The notes under the pieces were generated by a model. The model had not been told where the DNA came from. It made no database searches and saw nothing but the letters and a program-made list of their open reading frames with translations. The position numbers and the translations under genes are program-made. DNA of 63,092 bases, filler included, from Stramenopiles sp. TOSAG23-6 (lineage: Eukaryota), in assembly GCA_900128565.1 (NCBI GenBank). It is 10 parts of 10 records of this genome, joined end to end, with 100 filler letters (N's around TTAATTAATTAA, not from the genome) between each part and the next. Parts side by side here need not be neighbours in the genome. Positions count along the whole stretch, not along the records: positions 44,291 to 50,492 come from LT636753.1; 9 more parts are not named here. One strand, given 5' to 3'. Of the stretch, positions 25,327-59,107 are shown piece after piece; positions within the stretch are counted from its first letter, which is position 1, and each line of letters starts with the position of its first letter.

Positions 25327-25379
25327 TGTACCTAACAATTTTTTTTAGATTTTTTTTGAAATATTTTTCCAAAATACAT
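25327..25379 (+). other. Family intron 3' part (CAT acceptor)
   Basis: TACCTAAC..AAATATTTTTCCAAAATACAT|GTG at contig start. Confidence 0.75.
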
Positions 25380-34396: not shown

Positions 34397-35063
34397 ATGA
34401 ACCGCTATAAGGTTACAAAAAAACTTGGGGATGGCGCGTATGGTTCAGTTCTGAAAGCGGTGAATCATCAGACAGGCGAAGTTGTGGCTATTAAAAAAAT
34501 GAAGAAAAAGTTCTATACATGGGAAGAATGTATGCAATTACGGGAAGTAAAATCTCTTAAAAAATTAAACCATCCTAATATAATCAAACTAAAAGAAGTA
34601 ATTCGTGAAAATGATGAGTTATTTTTTGTTTTCGAGTTCATGGAAGATAACTTGTACCAATATGCTAAATCGCGCGATAAGCATTTTCCTGAGTCTCATA
34701 TACGGAGTATAATCTACCAAGTACTACAGGGATTAGCTTTTATGCACAAGCATGGTTTTTTTCATCGTGATGTAAAACCTGAAAATCTATTAATTAGAGG
34801 AGAAACCTGTAAAATTGGTGACTATGGTCTGGCTCGAGAAATTAGATCTCGTCCTCCATTCACAGAATATGTTTCTACACGCTGGTATAGAGCTCCTGAA
34901 GTATTACTACGATCTACTACATATAATTCACCTATTGATCAATGGGCATGTGGTTGTATTCTGGCAGAATTATTTACGTTACGTCCCTTATTTCCTGGAA
35001 CTAGTGAATCTGACCAACTTTATAAGATATGTTCAGTATTTGGATCTCCAACAGAAAAGTCTT
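34397..35063 (+). CDS. MAK/ICK-like (RCK family) Ser/Thr kinase, 3' truncated
   Basis: [56 protein letters not shown]. Confidence 0.9.
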
Positions 35064-35114
35064 GTATGTTTTCAAAATTGAATTTCAAATTTTTTTTTTG
35101 TACCAAATGTTGTA
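35064..35114 (+). other. Family intron 5' part, interrupted by the inversion junction
   Basis: TCT T|GTATGTTTT..TGTACCAAATGTTGTA, then switches to the reverse copy. Confidence 0.7.
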
Positions 35115-35443
35115 ACCTTATAGCGGTTCATGCTTCTAAGAAAGTTGAACCGGTAGGAACGCAATTCGAAACCTTTCAAAGATTTCTCTGATGAATAGAA
35201 AAATACCAATAAATACTAGTTAGTATCACCCATATATACACATATTGGATCAACCGTTTCACAACCGTTAAAAAAAGTTGCACGCGCACGAAAAACACAA
35301 TTTTTTCAATTTTGTTTCGAAAAATCGAATTTCTCAACTGACTACTACACGACGACTATTATTTCTGTGTGTACGACTTACTGACTTGAAAAACAGAGAC
35401 TCCTCTATTTCTACCTTCTACTAGTTTTCGAAGCTACGGGTGT

Positions 35444-37444
35444 GTGGATCATACAAGTAATCAACGTAACAGTATGCAGACACCTATGGATCGAGCAAGA
35501 GTTGAGTCTCCTGTAACTAAAAGAAATAATGGAATTCATAAGAATATTTCAACCACGTCATCTTCTACTGTTGCTTGTTTTGTATTGAAATCGGTCATTG
35601 TTATTTTACAGAGTGTTGGTCCACTCTCGACATTCTATTGGGTCCGCAAATTAGTTTTATGGTTGAAGAAATATAAATTTAAAACAACCAATATATCACG
35701 GCGTAATGTATTCAAAAATCTATGGCCGAGTGGGATTACATCCTTCATTAAATGTTTTAGTTTACTGGAGTGTATATTTTACCTCGTGTATCAGCGTTGG
35801 GTGTGGAAACGAAAACTGAACGACACTTTGATGGACAAAAATGTTACAAAAGGTGTTCGTAGATTTTCATCATTATCACGTTTTCCATATAGTGTTAGTA
35901 TGCAATATTGGAAAAAGATGCTTTCTTCAGTTGGAACACCTGTAAAGATGAGATCTTGGTTAGAAGGTTGGTTTGGAGGAAAATCATATGACTGCCTTAC
36001 ACGTTCTGGGATAGAATCATTTATAGCATGGACTTTGTTCCAAATACGAATTGATTGGCGAAGTAATTCAAGAAATGGAATCCATTGTGTACATGACAGT
36101 GTATTACAGAATACGATATCAAAAGTAGTAGATGATATTGAGTGTATTGCAAATGGTAGTGAAAATATTGGTTCTATCGATTTTGGTAGTGTTGAAGAGA
36201 CCAAACAACACTTGTTTTGCAATACAGAGACTATTGCGAATAATCAAATCATTTCAGCAATGACAAATGATAAACGAACTCAAGTAAAATCATGTTCACC
36301 TCTTAAATATTCACGTCCAATACGACATGGTATAGAAGCTATACATTCTTTACCTCGACCTTTATTTTTATATGGTTTTTCTCATCTTATGATGCAATAT
36401 GTAATTGAGCCTATGATATTTCAATTAATGCTTGGTTATACTCGTGAAACTGTTAAGATATCTATTCCTATTCTTCCCGATATAAAAAGTACAGCTGTAC
36501 AAAATGTATCAAATGTAGAATTTGAAATGATTTATTGGTACAGAAAAGCTGGTACAACTGAAACACAAAACAATATTGAAAAGAATGAGATAAAAATTTC
36601 TCCAGCAATATTCTTTCATGGTCTTGGTATAGGATTTTCTATCTATACAAAACTTATCAAAGGGTTACATGTAGTAAATAATGGAGTTGTTGAAAGAGAT
36701 GTATTTCTAGTGGAAAATTCATCGATTTCATTACGATTGTCTAATGATGATGAAGGTGATGCATTACCTCCTGCTGCTTTAGTGTCTGCTGTTTTGACAA
36801 TGCTTGAGAAACATGGTCATGATAATCAAAAAATATCTGCAATAGGCCACTCATTTGGTTCAATACCTATGTCCTGGTTAATCAAAGCAAAACCAGAAAG
36901 AATTTGTCGAGCTGTATTTATTGATCCTGTCTGTTTTCTACTGTATCATCACAATGTTTGTATCAATGTACTTTTTAGACAACCTCGAAATACATATGAA
37001 TATTTTTCACATTATTTTTTTACAACTGAAAAACGATTAGCAACTATTTTGTCCCATAAATTTGATTGGTTTGAGAATGTTTTATTTCTAGAGGATCTTT
37101 ATGAAATACATCAGAGACAATACTCTGTAGTAAACGGTAATGAGAGACAAAAAAGACAAAAAAGACAAAAAAATGTTGTGTCAAATTGTATGAATGAACA
37201 AATTACAAAATCATCAACAACAACAGTTTTTCTTGGTGGAGATGATAATATTGTTCCTTCTGCTGATGTTCGAGAATATTTACAAGATGGATATAAAAAC
37301 AAGAGTAGAATAAAAAATAAGTCAAATGAAGATTTGTCATCGATAGTAAAAGTTGTTTGGAGACCCAATAGTATACATGGTGATTTTATTTACTCTTCAG
37401 AGACTATAGCAAATATCATTAAAGCTTCTCAGACACAAATATAA
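35444..37444 (+). CDS. Alpha/beta-hydrolase, mirror copy of 32084-34084
   Basis: Identical translation. Confidence 0.75.
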   Translation: MDHTSNQRNSMQTPMDRARVESPVTKRNNGIHKNISTTSSSTVACFVLKSVIVILQSVGPLSTFYWVRKLVLWLKKYKFKTTNISRRNVFKNLWPSGITSFIKCFSLLECIFYLVYQRWVWKRKLNDTLMDKNVTKGVRRFSSLSRFPYSVSMQYWKKMLSSVGTPVKMRSWLEGWFGGKSYDCLTRSGIESFIAWTLFQIRIDWRSNSRNGIHCVHDSVLQNTISKVVDDIECIANGSENIGSIDFGSVEETKQHLFCNTETIANNQIISAMTNDKRTQVKSCSPLKYSRPIRHGIEAIHSLPRPLFLYGFSHLMMQYVIEPMIFQLMLGYTRETVKISIPILPDIKSTAVQNVSNVEFEMIYWYRKAGTTETQNNIEKNEIKISPAIFFHGLGIGFSIYTKLIKGLHVVNNGVVERDVFLVENSSISLRLSNDDEGDALPPAALVSAVLTMLEKHGHDNQKISAIGHSFGSIPMSWLIKAKPERICRAVFIDPVCFLLYHHNVCINVLFRQPRNTYEYFSHYFFTTEKRLATILSHKFDWFENVLFLEDLYEIHQRQYSVVNGNERQKRQKRQKNVVSNCMNEQITKSSTTTVFLGGDDNIVPSADVREYLQDGYKNKSRIKNKSNEDLSSIVKVVWRPNSIHGDFIYSSETIANIIKASQTQI

Positions 37445-37973
37445 TTATCAGACACAAATATAATTATCAGACACAAATATAATTATCAGACACAAACATG
37501 ATTATCAGACACAAATATAATTATAATTATCAGACACAAATATAATTATAATTACAAACACAAATAAAGTTATCATTACAAACTATCATACTTAACTTAC
37601 TACACATATTATAGATGGAATTCCAATAGTATAGTTGACTTTAAAATCTAACGACTGAGCTATTTTGCTTGCAGAAGTTTCGATTTTTGACTCACTTGAT
37701 GTCAACATTTCTTTTTCAAATTTGCTTGGAATCCAACCAGATTCCCCACGAGCATACGATCGAGGCCTCGTATTTATTCGACTTTTAAACGTCCACATGT
37801 ATTTTGGAAAAATATTTCAAAAAAAAAATCGTTAGGTACGAAATTTCGTATGAAAAAAAAATTAAATTAGAAANNNNNNNNNNNNNNNNNNNNNNNNNNN
37901 NNNNNNNNNNNNNNNNNTTAATTAATTAANNNNNNNNNNNNNNNNNNNNNNNNNNNNNNNNNNNNNNNNNNNN

Positions 37974-38027
37974 TACGAAATTTTGTACCTAACGAAAAAT
38001 CATTTGAAATATTTTTCCAAAATACAT
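37974..38027 (+). other. Family intron 3' part (CAT acceptor)
   Basis: TACCTAAC..AAATATTTTTCCAAAATACAT|G at contig start. Confidence 0.75.
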
Positions 38028-40736
38028 GAAAAAAAGATACAAACGATATCGAGCAGCAGTGCGTTGTTGGAGAGAAAGACATGCAAGGCCTCTTGTAAAC
38101 CGTGTAGAACAACACATTGCTCGTGAAATTCGTAATTATATGGAAGTTCAATCTTTGCGAACAAAAAACGATATTCGAATGACACGTATTATTTTTAAGA
38201 GATGGCGGAGAGAATCGAGAAAATCTCGTCCACACGTCAAAGCAAAAATGTCAAAAGTCTTACAAATGCTAAATGAACGAAACTCTCGTACACTAAAACT
38301 TTGTTTTCAAAGTTGGGGGCTTTGTGCGAATGGAAAGGGGAGTTGTAAAGCTGTAAAAGCTGCATATAGAGCTAGGTATATAAAGGCGAGAGCTACGGTA
38401 AAAGATAAATCACGAATTAAAGGAATTATTGCAAAAAGTGAGATTTTACGACAATTAAATTGCGATGCGACTGCAATCATTCGTGCAAACCATACAAAAT
38501 ATTTAATGCTCACATGTTTTAGTGCATGGGAATATGATACACTTTCAAAATTTAGATGGAAAGTTAGTCAAGCAAATCGACATTTTTTCATAACAACGAC
38601 AAGCAAATGTTTCCAAGCTTGGCATTATTATATTGATATGGTTTTATCAGGATTACCTGGTGCACCTCGGGAAGGTGCGCAGAGGTTTCAATCACTACAT
38701 AATCAAAATGCAATACATCAACACTGGCGACGTAGTCATCTACGAAAGCATTTAAAGTATTGGAATATTTATTCTAAACCGAGAGCACACGTTCGAAGGC
38801 TAGAGAATGAACATGTAGGTTCCCATACTGAATTTCAAATTTAGTTTTTTTTTCATATGCAATTTTGTACCTAACGATTTTTTTTTGAAATATTTTTTTA
38901 TAATGTATGCAAACAAACGTGCTAGATGGGCCATTGACACGTGGAAATGTAGAACGATTTGGTCAAAACGTATGAAAGCCTTGTGTGTGTCAGAATGGAA
39001 AGATTATGGTGAAAGACTTATGTCAGTACCTTTTCGAGCATGGTTTTGTTGGGCACATGTACGTTTTCATTATGAATTTTATTTATTTACTTTTTTTTTT
39101 TAGTATGAAATTTTGTACCTAACAATTTTTTTTTGGTAAAAAAAAAAAAANATATTTTTTCACAATATATGAAAGAAGGATACGAAAAACAACAAAACGA
39201 GTCATCGTCAGCGCATTTCGACGTAGAAAAATGTATCATAGAAAATACCAAATATTTAAAGCCTGGAAACATTTAGCAATGTTTGGTAAAGTGGAAGGCT
39301 TAAAGAGTAGGGTATCATGTACGTTTGCAAATTTAAAATTTTACCTACATGTTTTTACTATGAAAATTTTGTCCCTAACAATTTTTTTTCTTAAAGAAAA
39401 AAAATATTTTTTCACAATACATTGATAAAAGCATTACAAGAACAAAATACATTTGCAGTGGCACTCGAGGAAACAATCGATAAATTACAAGATGAATTAG
39501 AAGTATCAGAAGCCGCATTGAAATCCCAACAGGAGGAAAATAAAGAACAACTGGAAAAACATGAAGACTTGTACGTTTTCAAAATTGTATTTTAATTTTT
39601 TTTTTGGTAGAAAATTTGTACCTAACGAATTTCAAATGTAAAATATTTTTTAAGAATACTTGGAGCATAAATTCCAAAGACATGAGTTTGCGTTGCATAC
39701 TGCGGAAGCAGAAATAGTTCGGTTGCAGTCAATAATTGATGCTCTCACAATCATGTACCCTAGTACAGTAAAACTTTTGGATGATGCTGCTGGAGGAAAC
39801 CCAAAAGATGAAAATAAAGCTGTACATGAAAATACTGATGACAATCAAATAGATACAGCGAATGACGATGCTGACATTCTTGATTTAAAACCTTTTGTGA
39901 GAATGAGAATTAAAGAATCCAATGAAAATGATGATGATGCTACAGAAGTGAAAAGTAAAGAATCCAATGAAAAAGATTCTACCAAAGATAGCACGAAACA
40001 AAAGATTACACTGAATTCTATGCCAAGCACAGAAGAACTTGTTATAGATTCTAGTAATGATTCCAGTAATGTAATTAACAGTATACAAAGCCCAGAAAAC
40101 AAGGTCGTGGGCTCTAGTAATGACTTAAATGTTGCCACTTTGAAAGCAACCACTACAGTCACAGAGGAACAACAAAACGTTGAATCTGTGGATGCAAATC
40201 AAACCAACACACCGGCAAGTGACTCTACTAATAATGTAAATGATAAAGCTCTACAAATGACTCAAAAAAGCGAGTCTAATAAAATACTAGCCACCTCAAT
40301 GAAAGCATTGAACACAAATAATCAAGAGTTATTACCTGCACTTGACAGAATGATTCTTGCAAGATCTAAAACAGTGCTTGTAAAAGTAGGATTACTTCCA
40401 GAGGATGAACAAGACAAAATATTTCGTATATCTAATATGGAACGAATAACATTAGGGAGTATAGTTAATACAGAGGCTGTCTCTTTACTCCACTTTATTG
40501 GTACAGGAAAACCCGTTCGCAATGATTATGTTAATGAGACATCAGAAACATTTTCAGACTTTCTTCGAGGTATAGAGTTAATGTATCCACTATCACATCC
40601 TCTTAATATTTCCGCGCGTTCACAACTACAAGCTCGCATTGCTCGTGCTAAATCTAGACATAATGATAAATTAAACTTGCAACTGACAGGGGATGGGAAA
40701 GTGAACATATATAGAGAAGGTGATAATGATAAATAA
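38028..40736 (+). CDS. Sfi1-repeat-like (putative centrin-binding) coiled-coil protein, 5' partial; exons 38028-38814, 38909-39058, 39171-39318, 39423-39570, 39662-40736
   Basis: Recurrent FxxW motifs (IIFKRWR, CFQSW, CFSAW, CFQAW, PFRAW, IFKAWK); removing four family introns gives one continuous ORF. Confidence 0.65.
38815..38908 (+). other. GT-AT intron, 94 nt, phase 0
   Basis: CAT|GTAGGT..TACCTAAC..ATAATGTAT|GCA. Confidence 0.78.
39059..39170 (+). other. GT-AT intron, 112 nt, phase 0
   Basis: CAT|GTACGTTTT..TACCTAAC..CACAATATAT|GAA. Confidence 0.8.
39319..39422 (+). other. GT-AT intron, 104 nt, phase 1
   Basis: TCA T|GTACGTTT..TCCCTAAC..CACAATACAT|TG. Confidence 0.8.
39571..39661 (+). 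other. GT-TT intron, 91 nt, phase 2
   Basis: GAC TT|GTACGTTTT..TACCTAAC..AAGAATACTT|G GAG; joins to the 39660 ORF in frame. Confidence 0.75.
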
Positions 40737-41002
40737 TTATATATTAGAGTTTTAGGGTTAGGGACTTTATTTTTTCTGTTTCTTTCTACTATGTTTTATA
40801 TTTACTTGATATTTTGTACAAAGTTTCCTACAAACCAAATCCAGCAGCAATACCAAATCCAGCAGCAATAAGTCGCAATAAGTATAAACATGCCTTCGCG
40901 TGTTTTGTGTTTCTCATTTCTGATATCAATTTTTTTTATTATTTCGGAACACAGGATGTACCAAGCCTGGCAAGGCACGTTTTTCTGTTTCTTTTTTTAA
41001 AA

Positions 41003-44098: not shown

Positions 44099-44190
44099 GT
44101 ATGTTTTATTTTTTTTAATTTTTTTTCAAATTCGTTTTTTTTTTTTTGAAAATTTTGTACCTAACAATTTTTTTTAGATTTTTTTTGAAA
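44099..44190 (+). other. Family intron, 3' end truncated by contig end
   Basis: TAT|GTATGTTTT..TACCTAAC..TTTGAAA. Confidence 0.75.
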
Positions 44191-44290: not shown

Positions 44291-45259
44291 GTTTTAGAAA
44301 TGAGAGACGCTCGTATTCCGTTCACTTCAAGTAATCCTCTACTTGATGAGATAATTGGTTCAAAACCAAGGATGATTGTTTTTAACAAAAGTGATTTAAT
44401 AAATGAAGGTGGAAAAAAACGAATTCGGATACATTTTGAAAATAAAGAAACTCATGTCATTTTTTCAAGTGCAAAGTCTCGGGATAATTTGCAGGTCATA
44501 ACAGAAGCTGTTTCATCTCGAGTCGATAGTCGTTTTAAAACAGTTGGAAAATGCGTACTAATTGTTGGAATACCAAATGTAGGTAAATCGTCTCTAATTA
44601 ATGCTATTCGCACTAGAGCTGAACAGCGTGGTAACCGGGATATATCAGGAAGAAACCAATTCAAGAAAAAAAGGGGGGAAGTAGCTAGAACCGGAGGAAA
44701 GCCGGGAGTGACAAGGCATCAAACAACTATTCAATTAAGTCAAAGACCGCCTATATATGCAATAGATAGCCCAGGTGTAATGCTTCCTCGTGTACCTAAA
44801 CATTCAGCTGGCAATATTAAGCAATTGGATGGTCTTAGTGAGGATTTGGGTGAAGCAGGGATGAAATTGTGTATTACTGGTGCAGTAGCTGACAAGATAC
44901 TTGGGGAAGAAATAATGCTGGAGTATTTATTGTACAAACTAAATGCTCTAAATTGCACAGAATATGCAAGAACTCTTGGGCTTCCTGGAAATCGCCCTGT
45001 AAAGACTATTGATGAATTATATAGTCACATGTTACCAAATCTTTACCGTACTAGCCGCCACCGTGGTGTCTTACTAGCAACTTGTAGTGGTTCAAAGACA
45101 GGGTCAGCCAACCTCAATGTTGAAGGTCGTAGGGTTGTGAATGCTGACCAATTTGAGGGTGGTGAAGAAGATGCGAAAATGACTATCGCTCGTCGTATTT
45201 TGAAGTTATATCGCGGGGGCAAACTTGGTCGAGTTGTACTAGATAAAATTCCTGAATAA
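44291..45259 (+). CDS. MTG1: Circularly permuted ribosome-biogenesis GTPase (MTG1/RbgA-YlqF), 5' partial
   Basis: RDARIPFTSSNP, FNKSDL (G4), VGIPNVGKSSLIN (G1), PGVTR (G2), DSPG (G3), GKLGRVVLD. Confidence 0.85.
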   Translation, partial: VLEMRDARIPFTSSNPLLDEIIGSKPRMIVFNKSDLINEGGKKRIRIHFENKETHVIFSSAKSRDNLQVITEAVSSRVDSRFKTVGKCVLIVGIPNVGKSSLINAIRTRAEQRGNRDISGRNQFKKKRGEVARTGGKPGVTRHQTTIQLSQRPPIYAIDSPGVMLPRVPKHSAGNIKQLDGLSEDLGEAGMKLCITGAVADKILGEEIMLEYLLYKLNALNCTEYARTLGLPGNRPVKTIDELYSHMLPNLYRTSRHRGVLLATCSGSKTGSANLNVEGRRVVNADQFEGGEEDAKMTIARRILKLYRGGKLGRVVLDKIPE

Positions 45260-45322
45260 ATATTAGAAAAATAAATGAAAAGTGTAGTTTATTTTATTCT
45301 AGATATGCCCGAGTTAATCGGG

Positions 45323-46717
45323 TCAGGTTCTAATATCAAATTTATCATCGATCTTCTCATTTCCACTGTGTTCAAGTGTAGGGGGTGGAGGTGGCGTTTC
45401 TTCTAAAGACAACGACATTGTCTGATCTATTATCTTATTTCCGTCATTTTTTTCAATTTGCGCTGGATATAGACTTGGACTATTCGTATCTAGTAGGATA
45501 GTAGATACTGGGGATAGCGTTGTTCGAAAAGAATCAATTTTAGATTCCTTATTCTTCACACTAACTACAGGGTTTACTTTATTAATGTTTTTCTTCATAT
45601 TATCATAGTCTGTCTCTCCAGGTTTCAATACATTATTTAGCATATCGTCTGATTTTCTTTCTTCGCTTCTTCTGATTTCTAAACGATGCTTTTGGTGATT
45701 CAACTCGTGTTCCAAAACAGCTATTGAAAACGACTCTATGAATTTTGACGTGAACGCTTCTGGCATTTCAAATGTTTTCGTATTTTTGAGATACATTGTG
45801 TATCGACTGACAAACCAAGCTATGATTTTAGTGTCACTTGGTGATGCTCTCAGAGACAAATGTGCAAGAGCCAAAGTTTTTAAATTGTCAAATGTTGTGT
45901 TTCCTTCGACTAATGTTGCGTCTTCTGCGTGTATATGCGTTTTTGCATCTAATAATGTGTCGATCGCATTTGCATGCGTTTCGTGCGCTATATCCTGCAC
46001 TTTACGTTTTAGATTTATGATACTTAATGCTTCGGCTTCAAATTTATTCATTTTCTCAATAACATAACTTCTTGTCTTGTTCTTCATTATTTCACGCCAA
46101 GCTTCGGTTTCAGACTTGTGCAAGTCTTGAGGCGATCTATATATATTATCGGTAGAAGGGATTTCCCAAGTAGTTTTATCTGTTAATGTGTCATGATAAT
46201 ATTGTTCGCCATCACTTGTAAACACTTGAGTCCATTGACCTGCTTCAAAGTCTTGTTTTGAATTCTCTACATTTCTTGGTGATATTGTGTATGTCTCGCT
46301 GTTATTCATTTTCGATAGATCATCTTCTGATAAATAATCATGAATTGGTATTTCATTTTTTTTCATATATGACGCAAACGGCGATTGGCCACATAAGTCT
46401 TCAAAGTTGTTACCTGATTGTCCAAGCCAAATTTCGGCTGTGTTCTTATTACCGAATTTATATATCTTATATAGTTCAGAATTCAACCAGTTGAGGAATT
46501 CTTCTTCATATAGTTTCCCACCAATCTTAATGGCTAATAATTTCTCTTTTAAACTAGCCTGGAGATACTCCTGTGCCCACATTTCTAAAGGGAAACCATT
46601 TGGGTTGAAGTTTTGGAATATATGGTTTTGCGTTTCAAAGTTTTTAATGCCAATCCAGCCTTTACCCTCAAAGTCAAGGATACTAAAAAGGGTTTTTGTC
46701 ATTATTGTATAATCCAA
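45323..46717 (-). CDS. WW-domain protein with possible N-terminal EF-hand-like segment
   Basis: GQWTQVFTSDGEQYYHDTLTDKTTWEIP; LFSILDFEGKGWI. Confidence 0.6.
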   Translation of the reverse strand: MDYTIMTKTLFSILDFEGKGWIGIKNFETQNHIFQNFNPNGFPLEMWAQEYLQASLKEKLLAIKIGGKLYEEEFLNWLNSELYKIYKFGNKNTAEIWLGQSGNNFEDLCGQSPFASYMKKNEIPIHDYLSEDDLSKMNNSETYTISPRNVENSKQDFEAGQWTQVFTSDGEQYYHDTLTDKTTWEIPSTDNIYRSPQDLHKSETEAWREIMKNKTRSYVIEKMNKFEAEALSIINLKRKVQDIAHETHANAIDTLLDAKTHIHAEDATLVEGNTTFDNLKTLALAHLSLRASPSDTKIIAWFVSRYTMYLKNTKTFEMPEAFTSKFIESFSIAVLEHELNHQKHRLEIRRSEERKSDDMLNNVLKPGETDYDNMKKNINKVNPVVSVKNKESKIDSFRTTLSPVSTILLDTNSPSLYPAQIEKNDGNKIIDQTMSLSLEETPPPPPTLEHSGNEKIDDKFDIRT

Positions 46718-47005
46718 ACTGGCGGCTGATATTTTCTAGATTAAATGAATTTTTATATTATAATAAGTATATAATAGGTATAATACCTCTACTAGCTAGA
46801 GGTACTGCTAATAGAGCCCTCTTATTAACGTGGGTTAACACCTCGACCGTTTTTTTAACAGGAGTTTGATTTCGGATTTCCGATTTTTCGTGTTTTTTCG
46901 TTTTGGACCGAATATGAAAACGAAAGCTTCGTTCGTTCTTCAGTCCACGCTTAATATTGTTCACTTCCAAAGTATTTATTGTCGTGATCACGACAACGGA
47001 ACGAA

Positions 47006-48857
47006 ATGATTGACCAATTTTCTGTGTTCTCTAAATCTGGAGTTGTCCTTTGGTGTAGTGAAGAGTATGAGGCTCCAGGGTCTCCTGTAAACAAATTAGT
47101 ACAACAGGTCCTTTTAGAGGGTCGTTCTTCAGAGTCTCAATTTGATCAAGGAAGTTACAGTATAAAGTGGCGCTTCATGAATGATATGGATCTTGTTTTT
47201 GTTTGTGTTTACCAAAAAATATTAAAGTTATTGTATGTTGAGGAACTTCTTGATAAGGTGAAGAATGCATTTTTATCTCATTTTGAAAACGAAGAGAATC
47301 TATCGGACCGTCACTTACCTGTAGATTTTGATGTTATGTATAAAGACATTCTCGAGGAAGTTGAGTTGGGCCAGCTTCGGCGGAAGCCACGTGAAATGCG
47401 TGGATTTGTTGCAAAAGAAAAAGGGCAACGAAATGGGGTAAATGGTAGTCAGAAGACAATGACAAAAGCCGAAAAAAAACGGTTGAAAAATGGCGGGGAC
47501 GAAAACTCGAAACCATTCACGTCGCGAGTAAAACGTGTCATGCGAGGTTTTGTGAAGAAAAACAAAACAAAGAAGAATAATAAAGATAATGATGACAATC
47601 AGAAGAAAATTCCAAACAGGTCATGGAATGATGCTTCGTCATTAAATAGGCCAATATCAAAAAAAGATATTGCTAAATGGAATAAAAACGAATCTGAACA
47701 AGGAATAGCAGCCGGGGATTGCGAGGAAAAAATGATATTAGGCGAGTCCCAGATGGAAATTTTAACTGATGATGATTCTAGTGATGAAGACGTAAATGAT
47801 AAAAACGAAACAAGTAAATCTAGTTGGAGCTTTGGAGGTGCGATGGATTTTCTCAAAGGTTTATCTGGAAACAAACCTTTGAAACGATCTGACATTGATG
47901 AGGCTTTAACCACAATGGAACATCAACTAATAGAAAATAATGTTTCAAGAAATATAGCATCAGATTTGTGTGAAAGTGTTGCTGCAACACTGATTGGTAA
48001 TAAAGTTGGTACTTGGATGAATTTGCAGAAACTTGTAAAAGATTCTTTGAAAGATGCTATGACTCGTGTTCTCACCCCAAAAAAATCAATTGATGTTTTA
48101 CGTTCTGCCTTCCAAGCGAAAGCAGAAGGCCGTCCTTATTCTATTGTATTTATTGGAGTCAATGGCGTTGGAAAGTCCACATCGCTATCAAAAGTATGTT
48201 ATTATCTATTACAAAAAAAGCTTTCGGTATCTATTGCTGCATGCGATACCTTTCGTTCAGGTGCGGTCGAGCAGTTGAAAGTACACGGACGACGCCTTGG
48301 TGTTAATATATTTGAAAAAGGATATGCAAAAGATCCTGCCCAGGTAGCAACAGCAGCTATTAAAGAGGCAAAGAAGGAAGGTACTGACGTAGTCTTGATA
48401 GATACAGCCGGGCGTATGCAAAACAATACAAAGTTGATGAAAGCCTTGGCTAAGTTAGTCACTGATACGAAACCTGATTTAGTTTTATTTGTTGGAGAGG
48501 CTCTTGTTGGAAATGATGGTGTTGATCAGTTAAAATTTTTTAATCAAGCATTGGCGGATAATTCATCAGCAAGTACACCTAGGTTGATTGATGGTATCGT
48601 GTTGACAAAATTTGATACTATTGATGATAAAGTTGGAGCTGCTTTGTCAATGGTTTATGTACGTTTTCCTCATTCAGTTCAAATTTGTTTTTTCTGTACC
48701 AAATTTTGTACCTAACAATTTTTTTTCAACCAAAAAATAAATATTTTTCACGATATATGAAACAGGACAGCCAATACTTTTTGTTGGAACTGGTCAAAAG
48801 TATACTCATCTTCGACGGCTTAACGTACAAACTGTGGTAAAGGCGCTTTTTAAGTAA
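47006..48857 (+). CDS. SRPRA: Signal recognition particle receptor alpha subunit; exons 47006-48658, 48759-48857
   Basis: N-terminal longin (SRX) domain, [18 protein letters not shown]; splicing restores [27 protein letters not shown]. Confidence 0.95.
48659..48758 (+). other. GT-AT intron, 100 nt, phase 0 (copy at 54961-55060)
   Basis: TAT|GTACGTTTT..TACCTAAC..AAATATTTTTCACGATATAT|GAA. Confidence 0.9.
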
Positions 48858-49223
48858 GTAAGTAAGTAATAAAAAATATAAAAATGATGATATTTTTATT
48901 CATAATAGTATATACATTATTTTGATTGTCACTTGTGCTTTTTCTAACCAATTTGATCATTTTTTTTTGAGGCGAATGTTTAATATGAGTACCATTGAAA
49001 ACGTTTATATTGCAATTGCCACATGCCATAGTATATATTAATTTGGAAGATGATAAGTTGTATATAAATTCAAGGTAGGATTAAGGTATATTTACTCGTA
49101 ATCAAGTTTTTTTTTTCATCCTTTCCAAAACATCAGATACCTCAACTTCCAACATGAGACATTCATAATTTCTAAACTCGAAGAGGACAGACGACTTGTT
49201 TGTCCCTTTTACTTTTGGTTCAA

Positions 49224-49922
49224 CTAATCGTTCTGTGGAACATATGTGGCCACGTCCACCCAACCCCCTTCCTCTTTTATACGTTGGATCAATTCTCCCT
49301 TTTGTCCTTTTGTTGACAGACCAAGAGCCTTCAGTTTCTGCTTTAGCTCTGGCACAGACCATTCTTTTTTCATGACTTGAACATTTTTTTCCATCATACG
49401 TTCATGTGAAAATGAATGGATATCTGACTCACAAGGCCATTTATTTTCCTTATTCTTACCCCGAGGTTTTTTCCCGAATACCACATCAATACAAGGTGAA
49501 ACTCGAACAATGTGTGCTATGAAGTTCCCGTAGTGTTTGCCTCGAAATGTTTTACATACTATTTTTCGCCCTGGCGGAAACTGTCTTTCAAACTCAGCGA
49601 GCACTCCTCCAGGAAGTTTAGCTGCGTTTTTCAAAACGCAATTTTTCTTTTTCATGTCTTCGAGTTGTGTTTTTACTTGGTGGAGCTCGAGTTTGAGTAA
49701 TGTAGCATCATTTGCAGACATATGGAGCTGTGCTTCGAGTTCCTCAATCTTTCCTGCTTGCGAAGTATTAATGGCTCGAAGTTCAGCAATGCCAGGATTT
49801 ACTGAATCGATATTAGACGGCTTTAAACGTTTCGCCATTTTCTGTATTGGCCTAGTTAGTACAGGATGCGAACGACGATTGTACTGATACTGACTGGTGG
49901 AGAGCAACTTCTTCAACTTCAC
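49224..49922 (-). CDS. SAP-domain protein with coiled coil (first ATG at 49838)
   Basis: WSVPELKQKLKALGLSTKGQKGELIQRI. Confidence 0.72.
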   Translation of the reverse strand: MKLKKLLSTSQYQYNRRSHPVLTRPIQKMAKRLKPSNIDSVNPGIAELRAINTSQAGKIEELEAQLHMSANDATLLKLELHQVKTQLEDMKKKNCVLKNAAKLPGGVLAEFERQFPPGRKIVCKTFRGKHYGNFIAHIVRVSPCIDVVFGKKPRGKNKENKWPCESDIHSFSHERMMEKNVQVMKKEWSVPELKQKLKALGLSTKGQKGELIQRIKEEGGWVDVATYVPQND

Positions 49923-50174
49923 GAATCACAATAAATCACGGAATCCATGGACCATCATGATGATGTCAAAAAATATTTAACGGATGGCAACGGTCCTAAA
50001 ATTTTGATGGCTTATAAGTCGAGAAAATATTTTGATCACTCCGTCAGCAAAGACTCATACTCTTAAATCTTGGTATAAACTATACGTATTTGTTTTGAAG
50101 TCGTCATCGTCGTCGTATTATATACATTATAGCGGAGCTTGGAACAAAGTTGATTTTACGAATTCACGTGGATA

Positions 50175-50492
50175 ATGTGTGATGTCACCGCTTCACGATC
50201 ACTCGGCGAAGTAGATACAGCAGTCATGAGTAATGACCAAGAACAAAGTGACTTTTTTTCCTCAGGCTTCACTGTAAATATTCCAATCAGCGAAACTGTG
50301 CTAAACGAAGGTATACGGCATACCTTGTTTACTATAATAGTTGCATGGGATCCAACATGCACTTCGTCAAAAATAATTTCAAAGCAAAGTATGGAAAAAA
50401 GAACAGTTCTAAATGATAATAGAAGTACAGATAAGATCGAGGACGTAAATAGCCGAAGGGTTAGGTTACACAGACGAGCTCGTACATCTCAA
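50175..50492 (+). CDS. Hypothetical protein, 3' truncated (copy at 56477-56794)
   Basis: ORF from ATG running into the contig end. Confidence 0.4.
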
Positions 50493-50592: not shown

Positions 50593-51561
50593 GTTTTAGA
50601 AATGAGAGACGCTCGTATTCCGTTCACTTCAAGTAATCCTCTACTTGATGAGATAATTGGTTCAAAACCAAGGATGATTGTTTTTAACAAAAGTGATTTA
50701 ATAAATGAAGGTGGAAAAAAACGAATTCGGATACATTTTGAAAATAAAGAAACTCATGTCATTTTTTCAAGTGCAAAGTCTCGGGATAATTTGCAGGTCA
50801 TAACAGAAGCTGTTTCATCTCGAGTCGATAGTCGTTTTAAAACAGTTGGAAAATGCGTACTAATTGTTGGAATACCAAATGTAGGTAAATCGTCTCTAAT
50901 TAATGCTATTCGCACTAGAGCTGAACAGCGTGGTAACCGGGATATATCAGGAAGAAACCAATTCAAGAAAAAAAGGGGGGAAGTAGCTAGAACCGGAGGA
51001 AAGCCGGGAGTGACAAGGCATCAAACAACTATTCAATTAAGTCAAAGACCGCCTATATATGCAATAGATAGCCCAGGTGTAATGCTTCCTCGTGTACCTA
51101 AACATTCAGCTGGCAATATTAAGCAATTGGATGGTCTTAGTGAGGATTTGGGTGAAGCAGGGATGAAATTGTGTATTACTGGTGCAGTAGCTGACAAGAT
51201 ACTTGGGGAAGAAATAATGCTGGAGTATTTATTGTACAAACTAAATGCTCTAAATTGCACAGAATATGCAAGAACTCTTGGGCTTCCTGGAAATCGCCCT
51301 GTAAAGACTATTGATGAATTATATAGTCACATGTTACCAAATCTTTACCGTACTAGCCGCCACCGTGGTGTCTTACTAGCAACTTGTAGTGGTTCAAAGA
51401 CAGGGTCAGCCAACCTCAATGTTGAAGGTCGTAGGGTTGTGAATGCTGACCAATTTGAGGGTGGTGAAGAAGATGCGAAAATGACTATCGCTCGTCGTAT
51501 TTTGAAGTTATATCGCGGGGGCAAACTTGGTCGAGTTGTACTAGATAAAATTCCTGAATAA
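50593..51561 (+). CDS. MTG1: MTG1/RbgA GTPase, redundant copy
   Basis: Identical to 44291-45259. Confidence 0.82.
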   Translation, partial: VLEMRDARIPFTSSNPLLDEIIGSKPRMIVFNKSDLINEGGKKRIRIHFENKETHVIFSSAKSRDNLQVITEAVSSRVDSRFKTVGKCVLIVGIPNVGKSSLINAIRTRAEQRGNRDISGRNQFKKKRGEVARTGGKPGVTRHQTTIQLSQRPPIYAIDSPGVMLPRVPKHSAGNIKQLDGLSEDLGEAGMKLCITGAVADKILGEEIMLEYLLYKLNALNCTEYARTLGLPGNRPVKTIDELYSHMLPNLYRTSRHRGVLLATCSGSKTGSANLNVEGRRVVNADQFEGGEEDAKMTIARRILKLYRGGKLGRVVLDKIPE

Positions 51562-51624
51562 ATATTAGAAAAATAAATGAAAAGTGTAGTTTATTTTATT
51601 CTAGATATGCCCGAGTTAATCGGG

Positions 51625-53019
51625 TCAGGTTCTAATATCAAATTTATCATCGATCTTCTCATTTCCACTGTGTTCAAGTGTAGGGGGTGGAGGTGGCGTT
51701 TCTTCTAAAGACAACGACATTGTCTGATCTATTATCTTATTTCCGTCATTTTTTTCAATTTGCGCTGGATATAGACTTGGACTATTCGTATCTAGTAGGA
51801 TAGTAGATACTGGGGATAGCGTTGTTCGAAAAGAATCAATTTTAGATTCCTTATTCTTCACACTAACTACAGGGTTTACTTTATTAATGTTTTTCTTCAT
51901 ATTATCATAGTCTGTCTCTCCAGGTTTCAATACATTATTTAGCATATCGTCTGATTTTCTTTCTTCGCTTCTTCTGATTTCTAAACGATGCTTTTGGTGA
52001 TTCAACTCGTGTTCCAAAACAGCTATTGAAAACGACTCTATGAATTTTGACGTGAACGCTTCTGGCATTTCAAATGTTTTCGTATTTTTGAGATACATTG
52101 TGTATCGACTGACAAACCAAGCTATGATTTTAGTGTCACTTGGTGATGCTCTCAGAGACAAATGTGCAAGAGCCAAAGTTTTTAAATTGTCAAATGTTGT
52201 GTTTCCTTCGACTAATGTTGCGTCTTCTGCGTGTATATGCGTTTTTGCATCTAATAATGTGTCGATCGCATTTGCATGCGTTTCGTGCGCTATATCCTGC
52301 ACTTTACGTTTTAGATTTATGATACTTAATGCTTCGGCTTCAAATTTATTCATTTTCTCAATAACATAACTTCTTGTCTTGTTCTTCATTATTTCACGCC
52401 AAGCTTCGGTTTCAGACTTGTGCAAGTCTTGAGGCGATCTATATATATTATCGGTAGAAGGGATTTCCCAAGTAGTTTTATCTGTTAATGTGTCATGATA
52501 ATATTGTTCGCCATCACTTGTAAACACTTGAGTCCATTGACCTGCTTCAAAGTCTTGTTTTGAATTCTCTACATTTCTTGGTGATATTGTGTATGTCTCG
52601 CTGTTATTCATTTTCGATAGATCATCTTCTGATAAATAATCATGAATTGGTATTTCATTTTTTTTCATATATGACGCAAACGGCGATTGGCCACATAAGT
52701 CTTCAAAGTTGTTACCTGATTGTCCAAGCCAAATTTCGGCTGTGTTCTTATTACCGAATTTATATATCTTATATAGTTCAGAATTCAACCAGTTGAGGAA
52801 TTCTTCTTCATATAGTTTCCCACCAATCTTAATGGCTAATAATTTCTCTTTTAAACTAGCCTGGAGATACTCCTGTGCCCACATTTCTAAAGGGAAACCA
52901 TTTGGGTTGAAGTTTTGGAATATATGGTTTTGCGTTTCAAAGTTTTTAATGCCAATCCAGCCTTTACCCTCAAAGTCAAGGATACTAAAAAGGGTTTTTG
53001 TCATTATTGTATAATCCAA
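51625..53019 (-). CDS. WW-domain protein, redundant copy
   Basis: Identical to 45323-46717. Confidence 0.58.
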   Translation of the reverse strand: MDYTIMTKTLFSILDFEGKGWIGIKNFETQNHIFQNFNPNGFPLEMWAQEYLQASLKEKLLAIKIGGKLYEEEFLNWLNSELYKIYKFGNKNTAEIWLGQSGNNFEDLCGQSPFASYMKKNEIPIHDYLSEDDLSKMNNSETYTISPRNVENSKQDFEAGQWTQVFTSDGEQYYHDTLTDKTTWEIPSTDNIYRSPQDLHKSETEAWREIMKNKTRSYVIEKMNKFEAEALSIINLKRKVQDIAHETHANAIDTLLDAKTHIHAEDATLVEGNTTFDNLKTLALAHLSLRASPSDTKIIAWFVSRYTMYLKNTKTFEMPEAFTSKFIESFSIAVLEHELNHQKHRLEIRRSEERKSDDMLNNVLKPGETDYDNMKKNINKVNPVVSVKNKESKIDSFRTTLSPVSTILLDTNSPSLYPAQIEKNDGNKIIDQTMSLSLEETPPPPPTLEHSGNEKIDDKFDIRT

Positions 53020-53307
53020 ACTGGCGGCTGATATTTTCTAGATTAAATGAATTTTTATATTATAATAAGTATATAATAGGTATAATACCTCTACTAGCTA
53101 GAGGTACTGCTAATAGAGCCCTCTTATTAACGTGGGTTAACACCTCGACCGTTTTTTTAACAGGAGTTTGATTTCGGATTTCCGATTTTTCGTGTTTTTT
53201 CGTTTTGGACCGAATATGAAAACGAAAGCTTCGTTCGTTCTTCAGTCCACGCTTAATATTGTTCACTTCCAAAGTATTTATTGTCGTGATCACGACAACG
53301 GAACGAA

Positions 53308-55159
53308 ATGATTGACCAATTTTCTGTGTTCTCTAAATCTGGAGTTGTCCTTTGGTGTAGTGAAGAGTATGAGGCTCCAGGGTCTCCTGTAAACAAATTA
53401 GTACAACAGGTCCTTTTAGAGGGTCGTTCTTCAGAGTCTCAATTTGATCAAGGAAGTTACAGTATAAAGTGGCGCTTCATGAATGATATGGATCTTGTTT
53501 TTGTTTGTGTTTACCAAAAAATATTAAAGTTATTGTATGTTGAGGAACTTCTTGATAAGGTGAAGAATGCATTTTTATCTCATTTTGAAAACGAAGAGAA
53601 TCTATCGGACCGTCACTTACCTGTAGATTTTGATGTTATGTATAAAGACATTCTCGAGGAAGTTGAGTTGGGCCAGCTTCGGCGGAAGCCACGTGAAATG
53701 CGTGGATTTGTTGCAAAAGAAAAAGGGCAACGAAATGGGGTAAATGGTAGTCAGAAGACAATGACAAAAGCCGAAAAAAAACGGTTGAAAAATGGCGGGG
53801 ACGAAAACTCGAAACCATTCACGTCGCGAGTAAAACGTGTCATGCGAGGTTTTGTGAAGAAAAACAAAACAAAGAAGAATAATAAAGATAATGATGACAA
53901 TCAGAAGAAAATTCCAAACAGGTCATGGAATGATGCTTCGTCATTAAATAGGCCAATATCAAAAAAAGATATTGCTAAATGGAATAAAAACGAATCTGAA
54001 CAAGGAATAGCAGCCGGGGATTGCGAGGAAAAAATGATATTAGGCGAGTCCCAGATGGAAATTTTAACTGATGATGATTCTAGTGATGAAGACGTAAATG
54101 ATAAAAACGAAACAAGTAAATCTAGTTGGAGCTTTGGAGGTGCGATGGATTTTCTCAAAGGTTTATCTGGAAACAAACCTTTGAAACGATCTGACATTGA
54201 TGAGGCTTTAACCACAATGGAACATCAACTAATAGAAAATAATGTTTCAAGAAATATAGCATCAGATTTGTGTGAAAGTGTTGCTGCAACACTGATTGGT
54301 AATAAAGTTGGTACTTGGATGAATTTGCAGAAACTTGTAAAAGATTCTTTGAAAGATGCTATGACTCGTGTTCTCACCCCAAAAAAATCAATTGATGTTT
54401 TACGTTCTGCCTTCCAAGCGAAAGCAGAAGGCCGTCCTTATTCTATTGTATTTATTGGAGTCAATGGCGTTGGAAAGTCCACATCGCTATCAAAAGTATG
54501 TTATTATCTATTACAAAAAAAGCTTTCGGTATCTATTGCTGCATGCGATACCTTTCGTTCAGGTGCGGTCGAGCAGTTGAAAGTACACGGACGACGCCTT
54601 GGTGTTAATATATTTGAAAAAGGATATGCAAAAGATCCTGCCCAGGTAGCAACAGCAGCTATTAAAGAGGCAAAGAAGGAAGGTACTGACGTAGTCTTGA
54701 TAGATACAGCCGGGCGTATGCAAAACAATACAAAGTTGATGAAAGCCTTGGCTAAGTTAGTCACTGATACGAAACCTGATTTAGTTTTATTTGTTGGAGA
54801 GGCTCTTGTTGGAAATGATGGTGTTGATCAGTTAAAATTTTTTAATCAAGCATTGGCGGATAATTCATCAGCAAGTACACCTAGGTTGATTGATGGTATC
54901 GTGTTGACAAAATTTGATACTATTGATGATAAAGTTGGAGCTGCTTTGTCAATGGTTTATGTACGTTTTCCTCATTCAGTTCAAATTTGTTTTTTCTGTA
55001 CCAAATTTTGTACCTAACAATTTTTTTTCAACCAAAAAATAAATATTTTTCACGATATATGAAACAGGACAGCCAATACTTTTTGTTGGAACTGGTCAAA
55101 AGTATACTCATCTTCGACGGCTTAACGTACAAACTGTGGTAAAGGCGCTTTTTAAGTAA
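53308..55159 (+). CDS. SRPRA: SRP receptor alpha, redundant copy; exons 53308-54960, 55061-55159
   Basis: Identical to 47006-48857. Confidence 0.92.
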
Positions 55160-55525
55160 GTAAGTAAGTAATAAAAAATATAAAAATGATGATATTTTTA
55201 TTCATAATAGTATATACATTATTTTGATTGTCACTTGTGCTTTTTCTAACCAATTTGATCATTTTTTTTTGAGGCGAATGTTTAATATGAGTACCATTGA
55301 AAACGTTTATATTGCAATTGCCACATGCCATAGTATATATTAATTTGGAAGATGATAAGTTGTATATAAATTCAAGGTAGGATTAAGGTATATTTACTCG
55401 TAATCAAGTTTTTTTTTTCATCCTTTCCAAAACATCAGATACCTCAACTTCCAACATGAGACATTCATAATTTCTAAACTCGAAGAGGACAGACGACTTG
55501 TTTGTCCCTTTTACTTTTGGTTCAA

Positions 55526-56224
55526 CTAATCGTTCTGTGGAACATATGTGGCCACGTCCACCCAACCCCCTTCCTCTTTTATACGTTGGATCAATTCTCC
55601 CTTTTGTCCTTTTGTTGACAGACCAAGAGCCTTCAGTTTCTGCTTTAGCTCTGGCACAGACCATTCTTTTTTCATGACTTGAACATTTTTTTCCATCATA
55701 CGTTCATGTGAAAATGAATGGATATCTGACTCACAAGGCCATTTATTTTCCTTATTCTTACCCCGAGGTTTTTTCCCGAATACCACATCAATACAAGGTG
55801 AAACTCGAACAATGTGTGCTATGAAGTTCCCGTAGTGTTTGCCTCGAAATGTTTTACATACTATTTTTCGCCCTGGCGGAAACTGTCTTTCAAACTCAGC
55901 GAGCACTCCTCCAGGAAGTTTAGCTGCGTTTTTCAAAACGCAATTTTTCTTTTTCATGTCTTCGAGTTGTGTTTTTACTTGGTGGAGCTCGAGTTTGAGT
56001 AATGTAGCATCATTTGCAGACATATGGAGCTGTGCTTCGAGTTCCTCAATCTTTCCTGCTTGCGAAGTATTAATGGCTCGAAGTTCAGCAATGCCAGGAT
56101 TTACTGAATCGATATTAGACGGCTTTAAACGTTTCGCCATTTTCTGTATTGGCCTAGTTAGTACAGGATGCGAACGACGATTGTACTGATACTGACTGGT
56201 GGAGAGCAACTTCTTCAACTTCAC
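55526..56224 (-). CDS. SAP-domain protein, redundant copy
   Basis: Identical to 49224-49922. Confidence 0.7.
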   Translation of the reverse strand: MKLKKLLSTSQYQYNRRSHPVLTRPIQKMAKRLKPSNIDSVNPGIAELRAINTSQAGKIEELEAQLHMSANDATLLKLELHQVKTQLEDMKKKNCVLKNAAKLPGGVLAEFERQFPPGRKIVCKTFRGKHYGNFIAHIVRVSPCIDVVFGKKPRGKNKENKWPCESDIHSFSHERMMEKNVQVMKKEWSVPELKQKLKALGLSTKGQKGELIQRIKEEGGWVDVATYVPQND

Positions 56225-57098
56225 GAATCACAATAAATCACGGAATCCATGGACCATCATGATGATGTCAAAAAATATTTAACGGATGGCAACGGTCCTA
56301 AAATTTTGATGGCTTATAAGTCGAGAAAATATTTTGATCACTCCGTCAGCAAAGACTCATACTCTTAAATCTTGGTATAAACTATACGTATTTGTTTTGA
56401 AGTCGTCATCGTCGTCGTATTATATACATTATAGCGGAGCTTGGAACAAAGTTGATTTTACGAATTCACGTGGATAATGTGTGATGTCACCGCTTCACGA
56501 TCACTCGGCGAAGTAGATACAGCAGTCATGAGTAATGACCAAGAACAAAGTGACTTTTTTTCCTCAGGCTTCACTGTAAATATTCCAATCAGCGAAACTG
56601 TGCTAAACGAAGGTATACGGCATACCTTGTTTACTATAATAGTTGCATGGGATCCAACATGCACTTCGTCAAAAATAATTTCAAAGCAAAGTATGGAAAA
56701 AAGAACAGTTCTAAATGATAATAGAAGTACAGATAAGATCGAGGACGTAAATAGCCGAAGGGTTAGGTTACACAGACGAGCTCGTACATCTCAANNNNNN
56801 NNNNNNNNNNNNNNNNNNNNNNNNNNNNNNNNNNNNNNTTAATTAATTAANNNNNNNNNNNNNNNNNNNNNNNNNNNNNNNNNNNNNNNNNNNNTATTTG
56901 CACAAATGGTGAATCATACAGGTCCATTAAAATCATCACATTTGAAAGACATTGCAAAACAAAACTATTTTAATACGAATAAATTAAAAAAAAATAAATT
57001 TGAAAAATAAGTTTTATTTTTAATGCAGTTAAAAATATATTGATTATATTTTTTGAAAATAAAAATGTTACGTAAAAAACTGGACGCAAAAACAGAAT

Positions 57099-58871: not shown

Positions 58872-59107
58872 TTTTTTTTACTCAAGAGTTTGACTGCGTC
58901 ACTCAAAAAAAAGAGAGACATCAACATCAACACATTCAATTCGAATATAAGCTAGGGTTAGGGCTAGTGAGAAAGAGAGAACAAACATAACAAAGCAGGT
59001 TTGTTACGTACATGAAATCAAAAAAGTGCTGACTAGTATGGCCAAAGTTGCCTTTGTCTTTTTTCTTGCGCCTCGAGGTACATACTATTATCGCCCCAGA
59101 AAAAAAT

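Follow-up and report, generated by a model that had tools for sequence, protein, structure and literature searches.

An introner-like intron family with a uniform non-AG 3' end in contigs of a stramenopile

In a window of 63,092 bases from Stramenopiles sp. TOSAG23-6 (the whole stretch of DNA that was analyzed; all positions count along it), a stretch of 100 nucleotides (nt) inside the gene for SRP receptor alpha (48659-48758, + strand, phase 0, borders GT...AT) was found to be one of 23 distinct copies of a repeated sequence, which are distributed over 12 genes and which typically start with GT, end in T rather than AG, and follow an exon that ends in T. This observation is far beyond chance within the window. 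We favor, with moderate confidence, the reading that the focal stretch is a genuine intron and belongs to an introner-like family of high copy number, whose removal is of the spliceosomal type and follows a GT-AT rule. The family is introner-like and has a uniform non-AG 3' end; repeated mobile introns themselves are already known.

The window is made of ten contigs of 6,198-6,232 bases each, sorted by length and separated by spacers of the form N44-TTAATTAATTAA-N44 (6233-6332 and eight further). Two contigs are present more than once: pieces 1, 2 and 3 are identical (1-6232 = 6333-12564 = 12665-18896), and so are pieces 8 and 9 (44291-50492 = 50593-56794). Since raw counts over the window would therefore count copies twice, all intron counts given here refer to the unique sequence only (40,415 bases, about 40.4 kb), where the density of the family is ~0.57 introns per kb. 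The copies are designated by letters, the focal intron being u, and a caret marks the cut.

The borders of intron u are gtttat^GTACG...GATATAT^gaaaca. The 5' junction box TAT^GTACGTTTTCC (48656-48669, +) has the T of exon position -1 at 48658. The GTACCTAAC box, the presumed branch site, is located at 48708-48716 (+) with its A 43 nt from the 3' end, and the 3' box ATATTTTTCACGATATAT^G (48741-48759, +) places the last intron base, a T, at 48758 and the first exon base, a G, at 48759. The upstream exon (47006-48658, +) matches Pfam SRP-alpha_N, SRP54_N and SRP54 and ends in ...SMVY, while the downstream exon (48759-48854, +) contributes 32 residues and the stop codon and matches positions 165-195 of the SRP54 profile. 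Across the intron this profile runs from positions 3-163, reaching residue 550 of 551, and resumes at 165. The orthologs P0002 and P0003 read SMVYETGQPI(I/L)FVGTGQ through the site, which corresponds to the junction SMVY^ETGQ. For P0003, which is 83% identical, the lengths (612 amino acids (aa) on a contig of 1,896 nt) indicate that an intron of at least 91 nt would not fit. The closest database gene model, P0001, has SMVYVRQPILF at this place, i.e., a misread junction, and it omits three stretches of the open frame seen in the window, two of which have conserved counterparts retained in P0002 and P0003. Canonical splicing is forced on the P0001 model.

The exact 3' end has independent support for three introns, u, c and s; for the remaining ones the open frame fixes the length modulo 3 and the exact end comes from the family alignment. 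Intron c (23709-23819, +; 111 nt, phase 0) interrupts the AdoMetDC gene and has the sole CT^GT donor. The Pfam profile SAM_decarbox passes from position 254 to position 255 exactly where the last residue of one exon meets the first residue of the next (HVTP^ESHC); the exons match residues 102-180 and then 181 onward of PDB 5tvf_B, and the corresponding block of the human enzyme ends in ...IHITP. The preliminary description of this DNA had taken the conserved Pro at this junction as an argument against AT-AC borders; both alignments (Pfam 254^255, PDB 180^181) bear it out, and the A that such borders need is missing from introns d, s, v and x as well.

Intron s (39571-39661, +; 91 nt; ACTT^GT...ACTT^G) is the sole copy seen removed in RNA. 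A contig of 151 nt from a polyA metatranscriptome (run X6 record 21) aligns to 39506-39566 and then to 39658-39728, with 0 and 1 mismatched letters on the two sides. The skipped length, 91 nt, is that of intron s, and the skip falls within the 4-nt repeat ACTT. An AG situated 7 nt upstream of the junction was passed over. The RNA contigs of runs X5, X6 and X7 cover parts of piece 7 only, and introns p, q and r, which they leave uncovered, are uninformative in this respect. Numerous other apparent joins listed for the run contigs connect separate copies of the family and were disregarded.

Copies were located by the branch-site-like box together with the GTAYGT box, and fragments at contig ends that retained only a donor or only an acceptor were counted in. 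The 14 complete copies are 91-127 nt long and follow the consensus (A)T^GTAYGTTTT ... GTACCTAAC ... ATATTTTTYCAMAATAYAT^G. The GTACCTAAC box, which has at most one mismatch in every copy that includes the region, is the most conserved part of the 14-copy alignment. It is always situated at least 35 nt 3' of GTAYGT and 5' of a T-rich tail ending in ...AATAYAT; its A is 34-48 nt from the intron 3' end, and T-runs follow it. Invariant in all 14 aligned copies are the exon -1 T, the GTA, and two Ts of the T-run. In the 3' part of the alignment there is an ATAT-T-run box, an A at -9 and a T at -1 are invariant, and the distance from ATAT to the junction is mainly 18-20 nt. Mean column identity of the alignment is 59%. 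For these 14 copies RNAalifold predicted 0 pairs, i.e., no conserved base pair or hairpin. Every one of the 23 copies is sense-oriented and inside a reading frame, with phases 0, 1 and 2 represented by 8, 4 and 7 introns, respectively. We also observed that 8 of the 13 unique contig ends fall inside family copies, which is the expected result of assembler breakage at a high-copy repeat.

The junctions themselves were recounted. According to the preliminary description, every donor was preceded by T, 14 of 18 downstream exons began with G, and the general context was (A)T^GT...(A)T^G; the recount returned the same picture. The base before the donor was T in 19 of 19 cases (14 AT; 4 TT, in d, s, v and x; and 1 CT, in c), and the donor dinucleotide was GT in 18 of 19 and GA in one, copy m. 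At the 3' end the last intron base was T in 18 of 18 cases (15 AT, 3 TT, 0 AG), followed by G (14/18), T (3/18) or A (1/18). Given the strand-averaged composition (T 0.329, G 0.171; GC of the unique sequence ~34%), the chance of observing 19/19 T at exon -1 is 7e-10 and that of 18/18 T at intron -1 is 2e-9; for at least 14/18 G at the first position of the downstream exon it is 3e-8, and for at least 14/19 A at exon -2 it is 3e-4. Because the copies had been found by the branch-site-like and GTAYGT boxes, the T at exon -1 is not an effect of ascertainment. An AG that is not used is present between the branch box and the junction in 8 of 18 copies, while the other 10 have no AG there.

The same description had noted that the cut is ambiguous by at least 1 nt, and this is so in all 14 complete introns: the exon end and the intron end share one or more nucleotides, with a total repeat over both junctions of 2-5 nt. 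A T closing the upstream exon under the GT...AT cut is equivalent to a T opening the downstream exon if the alternative cut is assumed. In the focal intron the repeat is TATG, found at 48656-48659 and again at 48756-48759, as had been described. One explanation offered for it was a target-site duplication left by intron insertion. We compared junction matches within introns with those between introns, the test that has been applied to introners (in part of PMC9860276). The within-intron matches observed and expected were 14/14 and 14.0 at position -1, 11/14 and 9.6 at -2, 6/14 and 5.9 at -3, and 10/14 and 10.0 at +1; the summed repeat length was 41 compared to 42.3 in permutations (P=0.68). 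As there is no excess of within-intron matches, the TATG repeat of the focal intron consists of the AT^G consensus of the family and a single match by chance. The repeat at the ends is a family-wide consensus and not a locus-specific target-site duplication. The locus-specific form of the proposal is thus not supported (permutation P=0.68), while a fixed duplication of T or AT is compatible with the test.

Taken over both junctions, position -1 is T in 37 of 37 cases; position -2 is non-A in 8 of 37, and position +1 varies as well. In this small sample, an invariant -1 next to a variable -2 fits better with a specific requirement for T than with a decaying 2-nt footprint.

Under the GT-AT intron reading that we favor, three linear signals would guide removal: the 5' site ^GTAYGTTTT, the yeast-like branch box GTACCTAAC, and the family-specific 3' box ATATTTTTYCAMAATAYAT^. 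Recognition of the first two, by U1/U6 and U2, would be ordinary, and removal presumably makes use of the GTACCTAAC box as branch point. The 3' box would set the 3' cut at a fixed distance, with U at -1 tolerated or preferred, and the cut would leave GT...(A/T)T borders, an AG being neither required nor used even where one lies between the branch box and the junction. (A)U^G would be the exon-junction context that the splicing system accepts, so that only at (A)T^G sites could copies be retained or be inserted through reverse splicing. Among the features of U2-type introns, the GT donor (18/19), a branch-like motif with T-runs, and precise removal from RNA (seen for intron s and, for the other copies, indicated by frames and homology) are present, and the 3' AG is absent (0/18 ends). 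We further put forward, as a real though somewhat doubtful possibility, that GT-AT has replaced GT-AG as the main rule in this abundant, uncultured marine organism. A burst of one mobile intron family would have filled its genes, at about one copy per 2 kb of the window, and its spliceosome would now set the 3' cut by the family-specific 3' box and accept U, not G, at exon -1 and intron -1.

Several points weigh against this reading. At phase-0 sites the exon -1 T falls on the third base of a codon, where T is expected in 45-82% of such codons, and all eight phase-0 sites would have T by codon usage alone with P=0.087; selection on the exon -1 T after insertion is therefore not supported. The ends GTAY...RTAC flanked by AT and AT can be read as a terminal inverted repeat of 4 nt with a duplication of 2 nt, as would suit an origin from a DNA transposon. 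The lack of intergenic or antisense copies may reflect detection bias, given that the search used a branch box that is itself under selection. Intron h might end at an AG 5 nt upstream instead. The RNA evidence is a single junction from an assembled metatranscriptome contig, and the sample behind the family rule is ~40 kb.

The copies might instead be a non-autonomous DNA transposon, an introner resembling miniature inverted-repeat transposable elements, that inserts at AT/T and duplicates its target, the element proper being GTAY...RTAC. The segment excised by splicing would then comprise the element and a single copy of the duplication; the fixed duplication would also be the source from which the 3' AT site was recruited. 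The parse [AT][GTAY..RTAC][AT] fits 10 of the 14 complete introns, and intron s can be parsed with TT/TT; the ends GTATGTTTT and AAAATAC are partly inverted, and the contig breaks inside copies suggest many near-identical ones. Set against this, 3 of the 14 introns (c, d and h) disagree at -2, the junction test gave no locus-specific match (P=0.68), and the inverted ends extend for 4-6 nt only, without conserved pairing; with the flanks included the ends read ATGTAY/RTACAT. Moreover, all 23 copies are in sense orientation with none seen outside genes or antisense, and no transposase was found in the window. To our knowledge, a 2-nt AT duplication cannot be assigned to a known transposon superfamily. 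Precedents are described in part of PMC9860276, where introners with a splice site recruited from the duplication are documented and families with a fixed-consensus duplication are called ambiguous by the same test. On this evidence we consider a transposon origin of this kind rather unlikely.

A second idea, about which we are no less hesitant, takes the T at exon -1 as a requirement of splicing imposed by co-evolved machinery: U1 might carry an A that faces exon -1, loop 1 of U5 might be altered, or U2AF might have changed. The same change would explain the U at intron -1, and GT-AT would be the general rule of the organism. The invariance of position -1 compared with the variation at -2 and +1 speaks for it, as do the conservation of the 5' box through +9 and the 19-nt length of the 3' box, which suggest extended recognition. 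No ORF (open reading frame) of the window needed a canonical GT-AG intron, although no exhaustive search for such introns was made. An Rfam search found no small nuclear RNA (snRNA) in the window (0 matches). Parts of two studies offer parallels: in Entamoeba, U1 co-evolved with atypical 5' sites (10.1101/2022.06.08.495308), and in Fritillaria divergent U2AF paralogs read non-AG ends (PMC13326754). Against this explanation stands the codon usage, which alone nearly accounts for T at the eight phase-0 sites (P=0.087). A transposon-like element and co-evolved U1, U5 or U2AF are not mutually exclusive.

It is improbable, in our judgment, that the cut lies elsewhere, i.e., that the borders are TG...CA one base upstream or that the family is of the U12 type or AT-AC. 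The shift by 1 nt fits every copy equally well, and the branch box resembles TACTAAC and TCCTTAAC alike. A TG...CA cut would, however, require an intron starting with U, for which we know of no precedent. GT-AT introns are a known rare class, mainly of the U12 type; a compilation holds 7 of them, and they are splicing-competent (PMC1557818, in part).

Among the candidates that were tried and rejected, the AT-AC reading is incompatible with introns c, d, s, v and x, and elsewhere it produces mixed ends (AC, AT, CC and GT). U12-type introns have the consensus 5' box RTATCCTT and a branch box ~10-20 nt from the 3' end. RTATCCTT was found in 0 of the 19 donors, where the box is GTAYGTTTT; the branch-like box is 34-48 nt from the 3' end instead of 10-20, and around the invariant A at -9 there is no TCCTTAAC box. 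A hairpin-type introner or a euglenid nonconventional intron would have a stem of inverted repeats, which is absent (0 pairs by RNAalifold in the 14 copies). If the 3' site were simply the first AG that follows the branch box, the frame in c would be shifted; in s, the RNA contradicts such a site. That there is no intron at the RNA level at all, the interruptions being ciliate-like internal eliminated sequences removed from DNA or an artifact of assembly or amplification, is extremely improbable: chimeric features of the assembly (the palindromic piece 6, the duplicate contigs) could suggest it, but the interruptions of the 12 genes have splice-like boxes and preserve the frame, the intron sequence is present at high depth in DNA of an independent seawater run (X2), and a polyA RNA contig precisely lacks intron s.

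The GT-AT family can be compared with several known systems. As described in parts of PMC9860276 and PMC12130899, the introners of Micromonas, Aureococcus, Symbiodinium, Chrysochromulina and others are alike in being many similar short introns in unrelated genes, in being frame-neutral on removal, in carrying their own splice signals, and in having junction repeats that may equal a fixed duplication. The known families were, however, curated around GY-AG (or AT-AC) ends, in contrast to the AT/TT ends seen here, and the present family has no locus-specific duplication and inverted ends of at best 4-6 nt. A 2025 introner survey dropped families with unfamiliar splice sites unless these were confirmed by transcripts (PMC12130899, in part).

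Parts of two papers on Fritillaria borealis (PMC11282704, PMC13326754) report a large-scale loss of the 3' AG rule with a proposed transposon-linked origin, and AG-AT is among the common intron types there (PMC11282704). Fritillaria borealis is an animal, though, and its introns have non-GT 5' ends (AG-AC, AG-AT) and diverse motifs according to the same part of PMC11282704, whereas the stramenopile family retains the 5' GT and a strong branch box, and departs, uniformly, at the 3' end alone. In Amoebophrya, likewise a marine protist, there are repeated introns with non-GT-AG borders and with short direct repeats that span the borders of exon and intron and make the cut ambiguous; these introns differ in having inverted repeats of 8-20 nt that form a hairpin, variable direct repeats of 3-5 nt, and no dominant pair of dinucleotides (PMC7789003, in part). 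Compared to them, the family described here lacks a hairpin, its borders are all of one type, and its 5' and branch signals are linear and strong.

Mammalian GT-AT introns share the terminal dinucleotides; their competence for splicing has been shown in the U12 system, and part of PMC1557818 gives a single conserved case of the U2 type, DGCR2. Still, they are single exceptions among thousands, while here GT-(A/T)T occurs at 18 of 18 ends and U12 boxes are absent. Finally, the extended and nearly invariant 5' site and branch box resemble those of Entamoeba and of yeast-type genomes, and a matching change in snRNA is plausible; those genomes are intron-poor and keep the 3' AG, while the introns here are dense, ~0.57 per kb of unique sequence (for Entamoeba, part of 10.1101/2022.06.08.495308). 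Our literature search, supplements aside, found no published account of GT-AT introns in MAST-type stramenopiles, nor of this family: in PMC5778133 (supplement aside) the word 'intron' occurs twice, in the methods only, while 'splice' and 'canonical' are absent, and in PMC8163842 (supplement aside) 'intron' occurs 0 times. Yeast-type intron-poor genomes typically have GTATGT as the 5' site and TACTAAC as the branch box.

Many similar copies of the family seem to be present in the sampled metagenomes and metatranscriptomes, with the intron sequence abundant in RNA libraries too. The summed contig depth over intron bins was very high in four runs, such depth not being a copy number. For example, the bin 38806-39013, which holds intron p and its surroundings, had a depth of 3,665-5,197 in three RNA runs and of 21,872 in a seawater DNA run, compared to less than 10 in most unique bins. 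A scan of metagenome contigs with ATTTYGTACCTAACRA gave at least 118 loci, 2 of which passed a loose filter, and there were 0 family copies among the matches listed; scans of viral contigs and of genome contigs for the family motif returned 0 matches.

Family introns also appear in protein databases. The ORFs P0125 (on a contig of 506 nt) and P0127 (on a contig of 719 nt) read through family introns and contain Met (ATG) at the donor, ELE^MYVLFF in P0125 and GK^MYVLFF in P0127, these two donors not being start codons. The read-through peptides are ...ELE^MYVLFF...FFLKYFSKIR..., MYVLFF...WKYFSKIH^VFEL..., and ...GK^MYVLFF. They show that bacterial-style gene calling makes peptides out of family introns. 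A protein search with P0121 produced 4 matches, of which only P0125 was genuine and the other three were unrelated repeat proteins; a search with the P0125 region gave 2 candidates.

The remaining copies are distributed as follows. The AdoMetDC gene has, besides c, intron d (23968-24070, +; 103 nt, phase 1; TT^GT...AT^G), and excision of both yields an open frame of 399 aa to the stop. In piece 7, intron s is preceded by p (38815-38908, +; 94 nt; AT^GTAGGT...AT^G), q (39059-39170, +; 112 nt) and r (39319-39422, +; 104 nt; AT^GT...AT^T); with all four excised there are 766 codons without a stop. One gene on the minus strand (24549-25226) carries four copies: e (25175-25226; truncated at the contig end), f (24998-25094), g (24743-24855) and h (24549-24643), the frame being open across f, g and h to the stop. 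Intron i (21562-21658, -; 97 nt, phase 2), where AT^G forms a Met codon, is placed by the frame and the family alignment only; its upstream exon matches UDPGP, and a PDB search found no relevant homolog of its downstream exon.

An SH3/WW-domain gene holds copy j (25327-25379, +), truncated at the contig end, and copy k (26588-26681, +). A PolyA_pol/CCA-type gene has copy l (31282-31384, +), followed by an exon of 26 aa for which there was no Pfam match, and copy m (31469-31554, +), which has the GA donor (aaacat^GAACGTTTTA) and is cut by the contig end. A UTP20-like gene on the minus strand contains a (1-109, truncated at the contig end) and b (544-670); both are found again in the duplicate pieces, where their donors stand at 6441/7002 and 12773/13334. 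Only the 3' part is present in o (37974-38027, +) and in n (31655-31731, +), of which piece 6, being a palindrome, has a mirror image at its opposite end. Only the 5' part is present in t (44099-44190, +), in an exportin/importin-like gene, in v (62980-63092, +; TT^GT) and in x (35064-35109, +; TT^GT), in a protein kinase gene, which is cut by the palindrome junction. Frames are open also after excision of b, f-h, i, k and l.

Piece 6 (31655-37873) is a palindrome with arms of 2,866 nt that are 100% complementary and 691 nt between them; its junction, at ~35110, interrupts the kinase gene and intron x. The piece looks like a chimera of amplification or of assembly. The genes of the window are eukaryotic, mainly long open frames, and among them are genes for SRP receptor alpha, AdoMetDC and UTP20 as well as for a protein kinase, an exportin-like protein, and JAB/MPN and U-box/Sel1 proteins. 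For SRP receptor alpha the best database match was P0001, with 94% identity over the searched region and a source name of the form GSMAST32; P0002 and P0003 followed with 83% identity each, and the next named matches, at ~64%, were from stramenopiles and plants. The organism is probably an AT-rich marine stramenopile close to the MAST-3 group.

Some further features of the window were noted. The region 18999-22449 (-) is a single reading frame, broken by intron i, that matches positions 52-210 of the UDPGP profile as well as Glycos_trans_3N, Glycos_transf_3 and PYNP_C; it is either an unusual fusion of UDP-sugar pyrophosphorylase and pyrimidine-nucleoside-phosphorylase domains or a pair of genes taken as one. 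A double unit that resembles telomere repeats, TAGGGTTAGGG, was counted 5 times compared to 0 expected, mainly between reading frames (24141-24151, 30636-30646, 40753-40763, 58953-58963 and 61271-61281), and may be a regulatory box. Repeats are located at 18997-19191, at 6160-6232, and at 31960-32117 and 37407-37564; they comprise coding tandem repeats of 39 nt (Glu/Lys/Gln-rich, coiled-coil-like) and of 12 nt (ENNS), and a 19-nt repeat array close to the end of the 684-aa ORF of piece 6. Two short Lys/Arg/Ala-rich frames (KKRAAPKRRK...) at 29780-30455 (-), within an ORF-poor 3 kb of piece 5, may be histone-H1-like or low-complexity genes.

For genome annotation, the family means that gene finders requiring GT-AG mis-build genes in this lineage, and gene counts, completeness scores and pseudogene calls of such assemblies may need revision. 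Few signals of eukaryotes are as conserved as the 3' AG, and a family of introns that uniformly ends in U while having GT and a strong branch box isolates the choice of the 3' site. The parallel change from G and G to T and T at exon -1 and intron -1 bears on the old problem of the resemblance between exon ends and intron ends, and makes an insertion footprint testable against a shared recognition. If GT-AT is indeed the main rule in this organism, the lineage would be a natural experiment, and the symmetry of AG^G...AG^G would reflect one shared recognition step.

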